Virus record (IMG/VR): IMGVR_UViG_2851971941_000002
From: a virus
Taxonomy: Duplodnaviria; Heunggongvirae; Uroviricota; Caudoviricetes
DNA length: 39,096 bases
Reading direction: 5' to 3' (one strand)
Both the position numbers and the translations under genes were made by a program. The notes beneath the pieces were generated by a model. The model was not told the origin of the DNA. It searched no databases and saw nothing but the letters and a program-made list of their open reading frames with translations. Positions 28,373 through 33,610 of the stretch are shown here, piece after piece; position 1 is the first letter of the stretch, and each line of letters begins with the position of its first letter.

Positions 28373-29416
28373 ATGAAAATTAACAAGATATTATCATCTG
28401 CAACACTATTGTATGGTATGTCAATGGCCATGTCGGTCGGGAGTTGTGCAACACCTGTCCAGACTAATCTTCCTGGTTACACCCCGGGTGCAGATATCAT
28501 TAGTGTTTCACCGACCAGAAACCAAGTCGATCTCATTGGTGATGTTGTTTATTCCCAGATAAAAGGAACTCGTTCTGTCAGACAGCTTCACATGTCAGTT
28601 CTTGTCCCGCGAACAAATGATTTAAAACCAGCCATTATTTATTATCCCGGCGGCGGATTCATGTCTTCTGAACATGACAAATTTATTGAAATGAGAATGG
28701 CTCTGGCAGAAGCTGGTTTTGTTGTGGCCGCTGTAGAATACAGAACAATTCCTGATACATTTCCAGCACCAGTTGAGGATGGAAAAGCTGCAATACGTTA
28801 CCTGAGAGAGCATGCCAGCAATTATGGGATTGATCCTCAAAGAATCGGAGTTCTGGGTGACTCTGCCGGTGGATGGCTTGCTCAGATGATGGGAACTACA
28901 AATGGTGACAAAACCTTTGATAAAGGTGACTTTCTTCAGCAATCCTCAGATGTTCAGGCAGTTGCCACACTTTATGGGATTTCTGACTTGTTGAATATTG
29001 GCGAGGGGTTCCCTGAATCAGTGCAGGAGGTTCATCGCTCTCCTGCCGTAACCGAAGCCTTAATGATCAATGGCCCTGCATTCAGAAATTTTGCGGGAGC
29101 CCCCATCACAGCGTCAAAAGAAAAAGCGCTAAACGCCAGTCCAATCGGACATATGAAAGGAGTAAAACCCCCATTTCTTATTATGCATGGTAGCAAAGAC
29201 ACTCTGGTTTCACCTGAGCAAAGCGCCAAACTATTCAGGATGTTGAAGAAGAACGGCGATAACGCTGAGTACGTGCTGGTAGAAGGGGCCGAGCATGGCG
29301 ATAAGACATGGTATCAGCCAATTATTATAAACAGAGTCGTTGAGTGGTTTACTAAAAACCTGGGAGCGCCTATAAAAACAGCTCCCCAACAACAAAACCC
29401 AAACGCTAACCTGTAA
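28373..29416 (+). CDS. secreted alpha/beta-hydrolase esterase/lipase, possible lipoprotein (cargo gene)
   Basis: 347 aa; N-terminal signal sequence with a lipobox-like SVGSC; oxyanion-hole motif YYPGGGF, nucleophile elbow GDSAGG, C-terminal GAEHGD (catalytic His); opposite strand to the phage genes. Confidence 0.85.
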   Translation: MKINKILSSATLLYGMSMAMSVGSCATPVQTNLPGYTPGADIISVSPTRNQVDLIGDVVYSQIKGTRSVRQLHMSVLVPRTNDLKPAIIYYPGGGFMSSEHDKFIEMRMALAEAGFVVAAVEYRTIPDTFPAPVEDGKAAIRYLREHASNYGIDPQRIGVLGDSAGGWLAQMMGTTNGDKTFDKGDFLQQSSDVQAVATLYGISDLLNIGEGFPESVQEVHRSPAVTEALMINGPAFRNFAGAPITASKEKALNASPIGHMKGVKPPFLIMHGSKDTLVSPEQSAKLFRMLKKNGDNAEYVLVEGAEHGDKTWYQPIIINRVVEWFTKNLGAPIKTAPQQQNPNANL

Positions 29417-29421
29417 AAAGA

Positions 29422-29440
29422 GGGAGGGCTAAGCCCTCCC
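29422..29440. terminator. bidirectional terminator hairpin shared by the convergent esterase and adhesin genes
   Basis: Perfect stem GGGAGGGC-TAA-GCCCTCCC between the stops at 29416 (+) and 29453 (-); T-runs on both sides (CTCTTTTTAC on the minus-strand reading). Confidence 0.6.
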
Positions 29441-32400: not shown

Positions 32401-33361
32401 CTCGCATAACTGCAACATTATCGCTGCTAAGCTGTTCAGCCAGGGAAACGCCCGGGCGATAATTAAACTCAACACCGAAGGTTGTATCGTGAACGTTGCT
32501 CTGTCCTTGCTTATGCTGTGCAGAAAACTTAATCAGAGGAACTGGTGTATAAGAAATTCCCCCAGTAACTGCGTAAGGGTTTTCCTGAAGGTTATCGCTT
32601 CCAAATAACCCGACATTTTTACCATAATATTTTTCAAACTGAATAGATGCCCCTAATTGCGGATAAGCAGGTAGCCATCCTTCAGCAGAAAAATCCCAGC
32701 CATTTGCAGGTCTTTCCAGATAATCATCAATATCCCGACTGTTCTTCCAGTCAGATAGACCAAAATAGGTATTTACACCAAGCCTGAAATAATCCCTCCA
32801 GTACTCAACCCCAAAACCTGCACGAGAGTGACTGCGACTTAAATCGTAATCATAAAAAACATTCGCACCCAACATTGCGTTATCAGGAGTGAAATGACGA
32901 ATCCCCAAACCAATATTGGTCTGATTTCGGTCATCAGTACGATGTAGTGATGTCTGACTGAATAACACATAATCCTGAGTATCCAGCCATGGATATAAAA
33001 AGTCGAATGATGAATCCTTCAAGGAAAAAGAATCATCGACATTAAGCTTGATGCGCGCATTGCCATATTGTTGCAACCAGTCGACGACCTCTTTTGTCGC
33101 CTGAGTTGATAAAGTATTTACAGCAAAACTACTTGCATTATTATTCGCCAGGCTCTGACCTGCACTTGCTGCAAATGAGGCCACTTTATTTGCATGCTCA
33201 TCGCTGGCATAAGTTTGCGTAACATCTTTATTACCAGATGATGCAAAACTGTTTGCTGGGATCAAAGAAAGAGAAACTGGAGATAATATCTGGGTAACAA
33301 TTACCGACCATGTAATCGCGCCAGATGCAGTTTTTTTTAACTTTTTATTCACAGTGGTCAT
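29453..33361 (-). CDS. intimin/invasin-family inverse autotransporter adhesin (1302 aa) with multiple Big_1 Ig-like repeats (cargo gene)
   Basis: Long signal peptide; N-terminal beta-barrel region (IGLGIRHF, GANVFYDYD, FGVEYWRDYFRLGVNTYFGLSDWKN, GWDFSAEGWLPAYPQLGASIQFEKYYG) typical of the intimin/invasin beta-domain, then many roughly 100-aa Ig-like repeats; AT-rich leader. Confidence 0.85.
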   Translation of the reverse strand: MTTVNKKLKKTASGAITWSVIVTQILSPVSLSLIPANSFASSGNKDVTQTYASDEHANKVASFAASAGQSLANNNASSFAVNTLSTQATKEVVDWLQQYGNARIKLNVDDSFSLKDSSFDFLYPWLDTQDYVLFSQTSLHRTDDRNQTNIGLGIRHFTPDNAMLGANVFYDYDLSRSHSRAGFGVEYWRDYFRLGVNTYFGLSDWKNSRDIDDYLERPANGWDFSAEGWLPAYPQLGASIQFEKYYGKNVGLFGSDNLQENPYAVTGGISYTPVPLIKFSAQHKQGQSNVHDTTFGVEFNYRPGVSLAEQLSSDNVAVMREVQNRRYDFVERNNNIVLEYKKKHALKISLPESVQGEGESIIPVTLTINNASGGIKSVQWNDSAFTAAGGKISGNGTSWQITLPAYKSEGVNSWNVGATVQDNRGNVSNYAVMNISVNNSGVSTADSSFTLDGDSSPTISADGQSTYPIVLSLKDSNGKALTGLADDIEMSVEFTADSNSARQRETVTAPSLGAVEEISAGVYRSVLAAGSQAGTVRVTAKVQGKTFTLNIKQAAVIDSDVSTADSSFTLDGDSSPTISADGQSTYPIVLSLKDSNGKALTGLADNIEMSVEFTADSNSARQRETVTAPSLGAVEEISAGVYRSVLAAGSQAGTVRVTAKVQGKTFTLSIKQTAATEPDSEVSAVLTAAPAEQVVGYNINLQLAVKDSQGNAITGDNTLSFYALNQAEGVEFGTVTEKDGVYSATVTSKRAGKITIGVKSDSHDFSGVKKEITFIEDRQQVTFSQFEASQNNALADGKQRNMVTVSLADRFGNVVPGYAVTLSLPAGITQVGGEHAVSTDENGNAIFALISSTPGSYVITAHAGSQMSTELTVTFASNMTGASLSLTPESSSLISNIPANGKDAAVLDVQLTNTNASVNGQKIQLITSSEGLSVPTNIVTDSTGHVSVPLTTVKAGEYTVTARVTDGSHSVESGSVKLTFVPDVASAELTMSVSKQEIVADGSENATVNIQLVDANNNAFTGEVDLTITPSTGASLTSSNLQLDAHGQATTQFTASKSGQYTIQAEYVLDGKRITASQNIDAVTDVKGAVLEITSSASSAVVSDTNNLVFTLLLKSKSGEALSGRALNVKTSGPSKYGALVVDKTTVTTDENGQATVSVHGRTVGSYKLTATLNELGSDVSAVKSFSLYADDANGVLTLTKDPGYETNDGSPVGIYARFVDHFGNPLSGTVEFSAGSEDSPDSQRVKMEPATVTLHWTGNAASEFSTYESGYHWIKAKITHSKNTYEKTIRTYVVKLPEKDS
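31347..32060. repeat. near-identical tandem duplication of a 357-bp unit (119 codons) inside the adhesin gene
   Basis: Copy 1 about 31347-31703 and copy 2 about 31704-32060 are almost base-for-base identical (for example GTTTTTCCCTGAAC at 31368 and 31725, offset exactly 357 bp); in-frame, encoding a twice-repeated Ig-like domain (VSTADSSFTLDGDSSPTISADGQSTYPIVLSLKDSNGKALTGLAD...VRVTAKVQGKTFTL). Confidence 0.9.
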
Positions 33362-33610
33362 AGTTCAATCAACGTTATGAATATAATGAAAAAAATAACT
33401 GGTATGACAAGAGGCGCGAAATATACAGATCGTTACAAAAAAATCAACTCAAAAATAAAATAAAATCTCTGCATAAACTTTATGGCTAAATGATTTCACA
33501 ACAATGGAAGAGACACTTTGTTACTCACGCAATCAATCATTTCGGGCATAACAACTAGTCCTAGATTATATTCGCTAGGTATACTTTATTTTTAAGCTAA
33601 TACTTTAGCT

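Follow-up and report, generated by a model that had tools for sequence, protein, structure and literature searches.

Two convergent genes, one for a long outer-membrane adhesin and one for an esterase, lie where a lambda-like prophage passes from the replication gene P to the nin region, which raises the question of whether they form one island and what such cargo may do. The window analysed here is the whole stretch of 39,096 nucleotides deposited as IMG/VR record IMGVR_UViG_2851971941_000002 (Caudoviricetes), for which a sequence-only reading had proposed a single "cargo island". We consider it likely that the pair represents two independently acquired lysogenic-conversion cassettes (morons), placed between P and nin of a lambda/DLP12-like prophage at icd.

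Host prophage and cargo slot

The host element is a lambda/DLP12-like E. coli prophage integrated at icd. The cargo is flanked by lambda P on one side and by the run of NinB-like ybcN, ninE, ybcO, rusA and Q on the other, and the position originally assigned to it is right; in phage 4A7 the same slot between P and the nin region is occupied by ren-emrE-ybcK. Both convergent ORFs were found and translated as first described, with a gap of 36 nt between them (Table 1). Their GC content is 44–45%, vs 51–53% in the flanking P and nin genes and 51.8% in the whole window. The prophage also carries iss/bor. Its regulatory circuit had been called dead, and the prophage is indeed defective: O and int are frameshifted, and the immunity region is replaced by IS110 and IS3 elements. 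In the ST131 strain JJ2434 both genes reside in an apparently complete prophage at icd, of which the window prophage, judged by sequence comparison, is a decayed copy.

The left edge of the slot contains the inverted repeat CACCGGAG...CTCCGGTG and displays 91% identity to the phage 82 record X92588, whose depositors marked, in the matching stretch, a -35 and a -10 (both as putative) as well as a "possible regulator-binding site". Homology to the esterase-less prophage of strain GN25 ends there at 28064-28067. At the right edge, the last three or so codons of P are replaced by the adhesin cassette, and homology to 4A7 resumes at 33622.

Table 1. Features of the cargo slot and its borders, in window coordinates.
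Feature	Coordinates	Strand	Basis or remark
Left edge of cargo slot	28053..28108	-	regulatory stretch upstream of the orf33/ybcN (NinB-like) nin operon
AT-rich region upstream of esterase	28109..28372	+	part of esterase cassette; presumed promoter location
Exported alpha/beta-hydrolase (BD-FAE), 347 aa	28373..29416	+	Pfam, PHROG, PDB, AF2 model
TAAAAAG cassette junction	29414..29420	.	includes esterase stop codon
Hairpin GGGAGGGC-TAA-GCCCTCCC	29422..29440	both	GC-rich, 8-9 bp stem, 3-nt loop
Inverse autotransporter (type Ve) adhesin, FdeC type, 1302 aa	29453..33361	-	Pfam, phmmer, FdeC alignment
Distal 112-residue tip domain, residues 1191-1302	29456..29791	-	without family assignment
Five further Big_1/Invasin_D3 Ig-like domains, residues 676-1190	29792..31336	-	Pfam per fragment, 1.1e-20 to 8e-08
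Two tandem 119-aa Ig-like modules	31337..32050	-	TRF, Invasin_D3
Barrel-proximal Ig-like domain D0, residues 342-437	32051..32338	-	6tqd match, FdeC alignment
12-stranded translocator beta-barrel and linker, residues 97-341	32339..33073	-	phmmer, structures 4e1t/4e1s
Signal peptide and short periplasmic segment	33074..33361	-	read from sequence
AT-rich adhesin leader, 249 nt	33362..33610	-	30.1% GC vs 51.8% in whole window
Conserved leader core	33381..33427	-	promoter-like TTGTCA (33410-33405), 16-nt spacer, CATTAT (33388-33383)
Replication gene P (right-hand neighbour, context)	33611..34312	-	PHROG 109, 1.2e-97

An FdeC-related inverse autotransporter

Domain searches bear out the proposal of an intimin/invasin-type adhesin. 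Pfam matches are IAT_beta (PF11924; E 4.9e-101, residues 57-334, model positions 3-279 of 279), Big_1 (6.2e-59, five stretches) and Invasin_D3 (1.2e-55, six stretches), and the PHROG families hit (7803 and 16344) are both listed as "unknown function". The barrel aligns in phmmer with invasin (4e1t, 1e-73) and intimin (4e1s, 7.9e-63), and D0 with the intimin D00-D0 structure 6tqd (1.3e-09). By inspection only, the signal peptide spans about residues 1-40 (MTTVNKKLKK, a hydrophobic stretch and ANSFA/SS). The C-terminal passenger consists of about nine Ig-like domains, as is typical of inverse autotransporters (IATs). The protein had also been called giant; it is large, with 1302 aa vs 2934 aa in IatC, and giant it is not.

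Length variation resides in the tandem module, which TRF reports at 31347-32054 (period 357, 2.0 copies). The two copies are 97% identical, and each 119-aa copy matches Invasin_D3 at about 1e-10. Copy number differs between strains, the alleles being 1064, 1302, 1421 and 1540 aa long, and DNA matches falling 357 bp short of the window allele suggest that a form with a single copy exists. The distal tip has no credible Pfam match, none of 149 other IAT cluster representatives contains a homologue of it, no part of FdeC aligns with it, and its modelling was unsuccessful (pLDDT 34.7). It is a candidate ligand-binding end, for which no ligand can be proposed since it has no homologue to argue from.

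The FdeC-type architecture is defined by consecutive Big domains and by the lack of both LysM and a lectin-like tip (Heinz et al. 2016, PMC4943183), and IATs of this type are adhesins or biofilm factors (PMC4943183; PMC6714894). The present protein displays such a series of Big domains and an alignment with FdeC; Pfam gave no match to LysM and none to a C-type lectin tip or Intimin_C, and the whole adhesin contains zero cysteines. FdeC (EaeH) is its nearest E. coli paralogue and has in common with it a long signal peptide, the absence of LysM, the IAT beta-barrel, a barrel-proximal Ig domain, a long Big_1/Invasin_D3 run and the absence of a C-type lectin tip. However, identity is 34% over 1205 residues, and about 66% between the barrels at the DNA level. 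The translocator forms a separate cluster at 50% identity, and the orphan tip and the variable-copy module are further differences. The gene lies on a prophage, not at the conserved chromosomal fdeC site, and JJ2434, which carries it, is fdeC-positive in Data Set S1 of Goh et al. 2019, so that both genes coexist in one strain. On these grounds the adhesin was rejected as an FdeC orthologue.

Intimin (Eae) and Yersinia invasin possess a homologous barrel, a D00-like domain and Invasin_D3 repeats, but the adhesin lacks LysM and their disulfide-bonded, lectin-like receptor-binding tip, its own tip being without Pfam match or cysteine; its score for NCBIfam intimin_all is 337.5 vs a cut-off of 1400. 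IatC (394.8 vs 2400), SinH (IatB; 319 vs 999) and YchO (IatA; 271.3 vs 508) were rejected likewise. IatB/SinH, IatC, IatD and YeeJ belong to the same secretion class and have biofilm or adhesion roles as seen by over-expression (Goh et al. 2019, PMC6714894), whereas the adhesin stays below every named NCBIfam cut-off. It is also missing from the six gene columns of Data Set S1, though JJ2434 is listed there. The adhesin is thus an uncharacterised FdeC-related IAT that is absent from the published E. coli IAT list.

The AT-rich leader of about 250 bp that the sequence-only reading had pointed out is confirmed by measurement (Table 1). GN25 has it together with the gene, and 4A7 lacks it. Its last 69 nt before the ATG are identical at 68 of 69 positions between alleles with a synonymous divergence of 0.18, and the leader core is also kept upstream of a chromosomal E. 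albertii homologue of 80% identity, where the remaining upstream sequence is unrelated. A promoter scan returned 10 sites, the leader hexamers included, vs 12.5 expected by chance, so it is conservation that suggests a promoter of the adhesin's own in the leader core. No clear Shine-Dalgarno sequence was found in the predicted 5' UTR.

FdeC is reportedly under H-NS and temperature control (Easton 2014). Regulation of iatB by LeuO has been published (PMC6714894). Together with the AT-richness of the leader (30% GC), the precedents of FdeC and iatB suggest that H-NS may control the adhesin as well. Compared with the GN25 allele, dN/dS is 0.155 for the whole gene, 0.023 for the barrel and 0.18-0.23 for the passenger; by this measure the adhesin is under purifying selection.

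A BD-FAE esterase with relatives in plant-associated bacteria

The second gene had been read as an alpha/beta-hydrolase with a GDSAGG motif, and the domain search supports this: Pfam BD-FAE matches at 5.7e-45 (153.9 bits vs a threshold of 26.8, model positions 7-214 of 215) and PHROG 3341, "esterase", at 1.9e-129. Matches in PDB include 6nkf (1.6e-37; 34% identity) and the gut carbohydrate esterases 6xyc and 6tkx. The AF2 model (pTM 0.76, mean pLDDT 69.7) aligns with 6nkf in Foldseek at E 1.4e-20 and TM 0.64/0.74, which identifies an alpha/beta-hydrolase fold. GDSAGG occupies residues 162-167 with the nucleophile Ser164, followed by Asp276 and His308, and the oxyanion motif PGGGF lies at 92-96. 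All 15 homologues compared (63-79% identity) retain the triad and PGGGF without exception, and these residues align with 6nkf. In the signal peptide, a lipobox-like VGSC (residues 22-25, Cys25) fits a relaxed lipobox pattern; the cysteine is confined to the closest relatives, the signal peptides of other homologues being ordinary ones.

Homologues with 63-80% identity occur in Pectobacterium, Dickeya, Pantoea, Kluyvera, Klebsiella and Rhizobium, the closest ones in plant-associated Enterobacterales. One from Dickeya is named "Ferulate esterase" by UniRef, a database name with no assay behind it. In structure, its neighbours are carbohydrate esterases from rumen and gut. With BD-FAE and CE-like hydrolases (6nkf Lip_vut4, 6xyc/6tkx, the CE domain 6mly, the Dickeya enzyme) the protein has in common the fold, the GDSAG elbow, the Ser-Asp-His triad and the GGG oxyanion motif; it differs from them in being phage-borne and in its lipobox-like signal peptide. 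These relatives point to a feruloyl or acetyl esterase that would act on plant or dietary glycans, and not to an obvious virulence factor.

Upstream of the gene, positions 28080-28372 have 36.9% GC. The AT-rich region is present in 4A7 together with the esterase, at 99% identity, and absent from GN25; the promoter scan as a whole yielded no more sites than expected by chance.

Two cassettes, their distribution and their possible roles

A shared bidirectional terminator had been proposed between the two genes. The terminator scan is positive for the hairpin on both strands, though the + strand is weaker. On the - strand the hairpin has a folding energy of -23.8 kcal/mol (z -3.7; equalled by none of 200 shuffles), and CUUUUU follows it; for the + strand, z is -2.3 and the U tract is poorer. 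We find it convincing as a canonical intrinsic terminator of adhesin transcription and as a weaker one for the esterase transcript. Since GN25 has the hairpin and no esterase, the hairpin is part of the adhesin cassette. Homology to 4A7 (esterase only) runs as far as 29420; that to GN25 (adhesin only) sets in at 29414. The heptamer TAAAAAG at this junction is followed by a different hairpin in 4A7 and by the same one in GN25, and it looks like a recombination scar.

Each gene is found without the other. Phages of the 4A7 type have the order P-ren-emrE-hyp-ybcK, then the esterase with a hairpin of its own, and the esterase occurs without the adhesin in 4A7, D2, 1W, 3W and Perceval, viable and cultivated lambdoid phages from the infant gut being among its carriers. 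Prophages of the GN25 type read P-adhesin-hairpin-nin; GN25 itself is a different prophage, at tRNA-Thr/proA. Of 5426 complete E. coli genomes, about 558 (about 10%) carry the adhesin, 682 (about 13%) the esterase, about 506 both (by inclusion-exclusion) and 425 the intact junction. Neither is a core gene, and every context inspected is a lambdoid prophage, which agrees with the earlier reading as prophage cargo. IMG/VR contains 29 matching loci, and a search of 50,697 deposited phage genomes gave no hit to the adhesin. This distribution, together with the junction, shows two cassettes that appear to have been acquired independently, and the single island is not sustained.

Both genes are foreign in composition. 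The label "non-phage" fails in that both products match PHROG families and the esterase is carried by viable phages; moron is the better term, as the genes are present or absent among syntenic phages and GC is deviant (30-37% upstream of the ORFs). Like the lambdoid morons bor/iss, lom, emrE and NanS-p, they are additional genes, probably with signals of their own, of deviant base composition and patchy among syntenic phages, with envelope or exported products. Phage-borne glycan esterases have a precedent in the NanS-p sialate O-acetylesterases of Stx phages; NanS-p is an SGNH-type enzyme, in contrast to the alpha/beta-hydrolase (BD-FAE) fold of the present esterase. In the literature searched we found no IAT described as a phage moron, and the literature and databases searched gave no report on expression, localisation, adhesion or enzyme activity of either protein.

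Could the two genes nevertheless form one functional unit, in which the esterase removes acetyl or feruloyl groups from a glycan on the host or bacterial surface and thereby exposes the adhesin's ligand, or remodels the O-antigen or capsule of its own cell to let the adhesin extend beyond it? Adjacency, convergent orientation, the common terminator, predicted export of both products and their joint occurrence (about 506 genomes, 425 with the intact junction) speak for this. We regard it as distinctly unlikely in view of the five esterase-only phages, the adhesin-only GN25 lineage, the scar-like junction and the esterase homologues, which are chromosomal in plant-associated bacteria without such an adhesin. 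It appears improbable, too, that the cargo serves the phage, with the adhesin as surface shield and the esterase as receptor modifier in a superinfection exclusion that replaced ren and its neighbours. The slot does hold ren in relatives, the envelope is the target of both products, and lambda morons are mostly membrane proteins, superinfection exclusion genes included (PMC6969025); against this, the adhesin has the full architecture of a family with documented adhesion and biofilm roles, and its closest non-phage homologue is the chromosomal one of E. albertii.

That the adhesin is merely an allele or duplicate of FdeC, and hence nothing new, would be in line with their paralogy and equal architecture; we give this almost no credence in the face of the low identity of protein and barrel DNA, the cluster of its own, the prophage locus, the coexistence with fdeC and a tip that FdeC does not have. 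Hardly any weight falls on the notion that both ORFs are decaying, functionless remnants. The surrounding prophage is defective, and in some genomes IS insertions lie in or beside these genes, but hundreds of genomes carry intact ORFs, the genes occur in apparently complete prophages as well, the dN/dS values of the adhesin and above all of its barrel are low, and the esterase triad is invariant.

We therefore return to two morons of separate origin. The adhesin cassette (about 29421-33621, - strand) would comprise the AT-rich leader with its promoter-like core, the FdeC-type IAT and its own terminator. The long signal peptide would direct the protein to Sec, the barrel would enter the outer membrane with the help of BAM/TAM, and the C-terminal passenger would thread outward through it to display the stalk of Ig-like domains with the orphan tip at its end, stalk length being set by gain or loss of the 119-aa module. 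By analogy with FdeC, YeeJ, IatB, IatC and IatD, its role would most likely be adhesion or biofilm formation, presumably to the benefit of the host. A lysogen would transcribe the gene from its own promoter, probably weakly and under silencing; where the prophage is intact, the early rightward (pR) transcript also runs through the gene, so that induction should transcribe it too. The esterase cassette (about 28068/28109-29420, + strand) would run antisense to phage early transcription and encode a Sec-exported, possibly lipid-anchored BD-FAE serine esterase, which would most likely cleave acetyl or feruloyl esters of glycans or oligosaccharides from plants or the diet.

More tentatively, and as less likely than not, we hypothesize a phage-mobilised E. 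coli IAT lineage with an orphan receptor-binding tip and variable stalk, which viable lambdoid phages using at least two integration sites would carry from one bacterial lineage to another and which may, as a lysogenic-conversion adhesin, contribute to gut or urinary colonisation by ST131 and related ExPEC/APEC strains. If true, this would be the first demonstration of a type Ve adhesin as phage cargo. A pair of passenger genes as such is an ordinary kind of phage cargo; the point that deserves notice is the uncatalogued adhesin, which is common in the pandemic ST131 lineage.

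Cassettes between P and the nin region

The sequence-only reading described a single cargo island between P and the nin genes, made up of an inverse-autotransporter adhesin and an alpha/beta-hydrolase (here, the esterase). Both long open reading frames are found exactly where it placed them and in convergent orientation (see table), with a GC content of 44–45% against 51–53% in the neighbouring genes. The AT-rich leader of the adhesin is likewise real: it spans 249 nt, from the large ORF to the stop codon of the next gene upstream, and has 30% GC versus 52% for the window. The unity of the island was not borne out. 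Its boundaries were drawn from blastn comparison of the window with three related loci. Homology with 4A7, a cultivated lambda phage from the infant gut, extends up to 29420 and begins again from 33622; the place of the adhesin is taken there by P-ren-emrE-hyp-ybcK, and a different hairpin follows the esterase. Homology with a prophage of E. coli GN25 ends at about 28064 and restarts at 29414; in this prophage the adhesin is present together with its leader and the same hairpin, and the esterase is missing. Common to all three arrangements is a heptamer at the junction. Judged by these alignments, the region consists of two independent cassettes joined at a recombination scar, each of which occurs without the other (in 4A7 and in GN25).

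Coordinates of features in the window (nucleotides) and layout of the adhesin (residues, domain-by-domain scan of the passenger)
Feature	Position	Strand	Details
ORF with a TonB C-terminal domain alone	23155-23481	-	108 aa; Pfam TonB_C, 7.3e-13
iss/bor, serum-resistance lipoprotein gene	23962-24255	+	Pfam Lambda_Bor, 1.1e-30
Esterase ORF	28373-29416	+	347 aa
Cassette junction	29414-29420		heptamer TAAAAAG
Hairpin	29422-29440		GGGAGGGC-TAA-GCCCTCCC; in the 36-nt gap between the convergent ORFs
Adhesin ORF	29453-33361	-	1302 aa
Tandem repeat in the adhesin gene	31347-32054		357-bp unit, 2.0 copies, 97% identity (Tandem Repeats Finder)
Leader core, ~47 nt	33381-33427		TTGTCA, 16-nt spacer, CATTAT
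O	34309-35219		frameshifted
IS3 fragments	35241-35549 and 36969-37808		surround ISEc21
ISEc21	35566-36642		IS110 family; nested in the IS3 fragments
Integrase intE	37970-39096		frameshifted
Signal peptide and short periplasmic segment	residues 1-96		without LysM
Translocator beta-barrel and linker	residues 97-341
Barrel-proximal Ig-like domain D0	residues 342-437
Two Invasin_D3-like modules	residues 438-675		equal length, 119 aa each
Five Big_1 domains	residues 676-1190
Tip	residues 1191-1302		final 112 residues; no credible match

The proposal of a shared bidirectional terminator holds in so far as the hairpin is terminator-like on both strands in a consensus scan. On the minus strand its folding energy is -23.8 kcal/mol (z = -3.7), and CUUUUU comes after it; the fold on the plus strand is weaker (z = -2.3), with a poor U tract behind it. 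The hairpin arrived with the adhesin cassette, and its sharing is an outcome of the recombination junction. An Rfam scan of the whole window matched no RNA family, and a search for small ORFs in both AT-rich upstream regions returned none that was credible.

At the other side, window positions 28000-28108 are 91% identical to the start of the phage 82 record X92588. Its depositors marked a putative -35, a putative -10 and, as a "possible regulator-binding site", an inverted repeat, all located upstream of orf33-orf151 (ninB-like)-rus. It is right at this annotated element that the esterase cassette has its left edge. Because cultivated lambda phages hold other genes between P and nin, this slot is a hotspot of cargo exchange. 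In 4A7 (positions 4767-7251 of the locus) it is occupied by ren, an SMR efflux pump (emrE/qacE), a small ORF and a large ybcK-like serine recombinase, with the esterase past them.

Architecture and relatives of the adhesin

The adhesin contains an inverse-autotransporter barrel (Pfam IAT_beta, E 4.9e-101, residues 57-334) and a passenger in which Pfam recognizes Big_1 in five stretches and Invasin_D3 in six. Solved barrel structures match residues 97-341 (invasin, 1e-73; intimin, 7.9e-63), and the intimin D00-D0 structure matches residues 342-441. Unlike intimin and invasin, the adhesin cannot bear a disulfide-bonded lectin-like tip, because it has no cysteine. It scores far under the NCBIfam curated cut-offs for intimin, IatC, SinH, Ilp and YchO. 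The nearest E. coli paralogue is FdeC, which has the same architecture (34% protein identity with Nissle FdeC over 1205 residues), with an alignment that ends short of the adhesin tip. A DNA search with the barrel was bimodal: 558 genomes have a copy of at least 95% identity, and otherwise fdeC alone is found at about 66%. Clustering of a library at 50% identity places the translocator in a cluster by itself, all remaining representatives being at most 50% identical; with 914 relatives at E below 1e-30, the adhesin is therefore one lineage inside a very large family. No homologue of the tip was present among the 149 other representatives, and a single-sequence AlphaFold model of residues 1084-1302 (pLDDT 34.7) was too low in confidence to be used.

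By analogy with the family, the adhesin would be exported by Sec, its barrel would be inserted by BAM/TAM, and the passenger would be secreted through the barrel as a hairpin. The outcome would be a stalk of about nine Ig-like domains, with a length that varies in steps of 119 residues and with the orphan tip as the likely binding end. FdeC-type inverse autotransporters act as adhesins and biofilm factors (PMC4943183; PMC6714894).

Alleles of 1064, 1302, 1421 and 1540 aa are present in databases, and the steps between them are multiples of 119 aa. A one-copy form is indicated as well, by DNA matches that fall 357 bp short of the window allele. The allele of ST131 (1421 aa) carries one additional module, with about 98% identity along its whole length. 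Two other readings were rejected as artefacts of the 357-bp tandem module, namely that additional megablast places per genome are paralogues, and that the 62–63% coverage in ST131 alleles reflects mosaicism. Between the window and GN25 alleles (dS 0.18), dN/dS is 0.155 overall, 0.023 in the barrel, 0.07 in D0 and 0.18–0.23 in the other parts of the passenger. The translocator is thus strongly constrained and the exposed stalk less so, which is what a working surface protein should show.

Carrier prophages, expression and distribution

Window positions 28000-33700 are 100% identical to the chromosome of the APEC strain PSUO2 and of several other strains. The PSUO2 record is annotated as a lambdoid prophage adjoining icd, in the order tail, head, terminase; iss (bor), lysis, Q, rusA, ybcO, ninE, ybcN; both cargo genes; and P. 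In JJ2434, an ST131 strain, both genes are found together on an apparently complete prophage at icd, which has int, xis, exo-bet-gam, cI, cro, a cII-like gene, O and P. The window is a decayed copy of this prophage. Earlier talk of a dead phage regulatory circuit is accurate for this copy: O and the integrase are frameshifted, and ISEc21, nested in IS3 fragments, stands in place of everything between O and xis, with the whole immunity and recombination region replaced. In GN25 (positions 1-10139 of the locus) the lambdoid prophage that bears the adhesin is another one, distinct also in its tyrosine integrase, and sits at tRNA-Thr adjoining proA.

Among 5426 complete E. coli genomes, the esterase cassette is found in 682, the adhesin in about 558, the intact junction in 425, and either side of the junction in 734. 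By inclusion-exclusion, approximately 506 genomes have both genes, some 52 the adhesin alone and some 176 the esterase alone. The adhesin gene is present in 29 IMG/VR loci; tblastn did not find it in 50,697 deposited phage genomes, where two mis-filed records matched at 30–32% identity only. A search of GTDB species representatives by exact peptide patterns, which distant relatives would escape, returned a close relative in E. albertii alone. The homologue in strain NBRC 107761 (positions 7658-8711 of the locus) is 80% identical over the first 237 residues, and the contig ends within the gene. Its locus is downstream of ydcSTUV-patD, and the 8 kb ahead of it are free of phage genes. This position suggests a chromosomal source for the adhesin cassette.

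The last 69 nt of the leader ahead of the ATG are identical at 68 of 69 positions between the window and GN25 alleles; the distal leader of the same two alleles shows substitutions and two 5-nt indels. In E. albertii the leader core also precedes the chromosomal homologue, the remaining upstream region there being unrelated. A scan for promoter hexamers gave 10 sites versus 12.5 expected by chance, which is uninformative alone. We read the core as a putative promoter or operator of the adhesin itself, carried with the gene. In a lysogen, expression of the adhesin would hang on this promoter of the cassette. FdeC is reported to be under H-NS and temperature control (Easton, 2014), and LeuO controls iatB (PMC6714894); because of these precedents, silencing of the 30%-GC adhesin leader appears plausible by analogy. 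In the intact prophage the adhesin is co-oriented with the early transcript from pR and lies between P and Q, such that induction should transcribe it via pR. Anti-terminated polymerase would then have to pass the adhesin terminator and run antisense through the esterase to reach the nin genes and Q. The window has no pR, and therefore autonomous expression is the sole possibility here.

The esterase, the published record and significance

The small protein matches BD-FAE (5.7e-45) and Abhydrolase_3 (1.1e-22) in Pfam and the PHROG family 3341 "esterase" (1.9e-129). Among solved structures it is closest to a goat-rumen esterase (6nkf, 1.6e-37), to carbohydrate esterases of the gut microbiota (6xyc, 6tkx) and, in a Bacteroides GH43-CE enzyme, to the esterase domain; a structure model from 15 homologues (pTM 0.76) recovers the same structures. 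Ser164 (in GDSAGG), Asp276, His308 and the oxyanion motif PGGGF are invariant across those 15 homologues, all of which have an N-terminal signal peptide. Lipid anchoring is possible at most, since the lipobox-like motif VGSC (Cys25) is confined to the closest relatives. The extreme C-terminus (29405-29413; ...A-NL-COOH) is invariant in the same homologues, from Enterobacterales, Rhizobiales and Burkholderiales, while the approximately 15 residues ahead of it are variable; this end may serve as a signal for sorting or secretion.

The nearest homologues outside E. coli (63–80% identity) are chromosomal and belong to Pectobacterium, Dickeya, Pantoea, Kosakonia, Kluyvera, Klebsiella, Rahnella, Rhizobium and Variovorax. 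One Dickeya homologue bears the UniRef database name "Ferulate esterase". Dickeya also secretes a feruloyl esterase, FaeD, via the type 2 system (PMC9007343), which may or may not be this homologue. Based on these relatives, the substrates are most likely acetyl or feruloyl esters on plant or dietary glycans. The esterase is genuine cargo of viable phages; its relatives point to glycan-ester metabolism rather than virulence. The esterase is an ordinary moron, i.e. a phage passenger gene.

Inverse autotransporters of 126 complete E. coli genomes have been sorted into seven groups, intimin, FdeC, YeeJ and IatA to IatD (Goh et al., 2019). Their Data Set S1 scores JJ2434 for fdeC, iatA and iatB only, yet this strain carries the gene of the 1421-aa adhesin. 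Hence, the adhesin is without a family of its own in these tables, either merged with FdeC or missed. PHROGs splits it over two families, both of "unknown function", and its RefSeq name is merely generic. Full-text search of open-access papers and preprints found no paper on this gene; AJB35136, from an APEC biofilm paper, was rejected as a lead, being a glycosyltransferase. The adhesin is uncharacterised, yet its kind is well known, as is this kind of phage cargo. Taken together, the pair of cargo genes noted from the sequence is confirmed, and its interpretation is supported with corrections as to the cassettes and the role of the esterase. A role of the adhesin in colonisation, control by H-NS and lipoprotein status of the esterase are put forward as hypotheses.

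In extraintestinal E. coli, adhesins count both as first-line colonisation factors and as vaccine candidates, and FdeC and SinH are both under pursuit as such. The adhesin occurs in about one tenth of complete E. coli genomes, ST131 among them, and its carrier prophages possess iss, a serum-resistance gene, as well. Should the adhesin prove to be expressed and adhesive, the ExPEC repertoire would gain a phage-transferable member, and lambdoid phages would be shown able to hold a 4-kb gene for a surface protein in their ren/nin slot. The esterase would be a second case of phages delivering glycan-ester-cleaving enzymes to gut E. coli. Neither gene changes the understanding of how such systems work; significance rests on the prevalence in ST131 and related ExPEC/APEC, the absence from the published catalogue, the orphan tip and at least two different carrier prophages.

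Insertions of the IS3 or IS66 family (ISEc23) in or beside the adhesin or the esterase were seen in several genomes (hits H20-H26, H56, H68, H77), many of them human isolates; because of these insertions, the cargo is recurrently inactivated in some lineages. In the window, the prophage has a third, well-known moron in iss/bor, with the lysis genes on one side of it and terminase on the other. The adjoining ORF, named "TonB family protein" in RefSeq, is a stand-alone fragment on the prophage.
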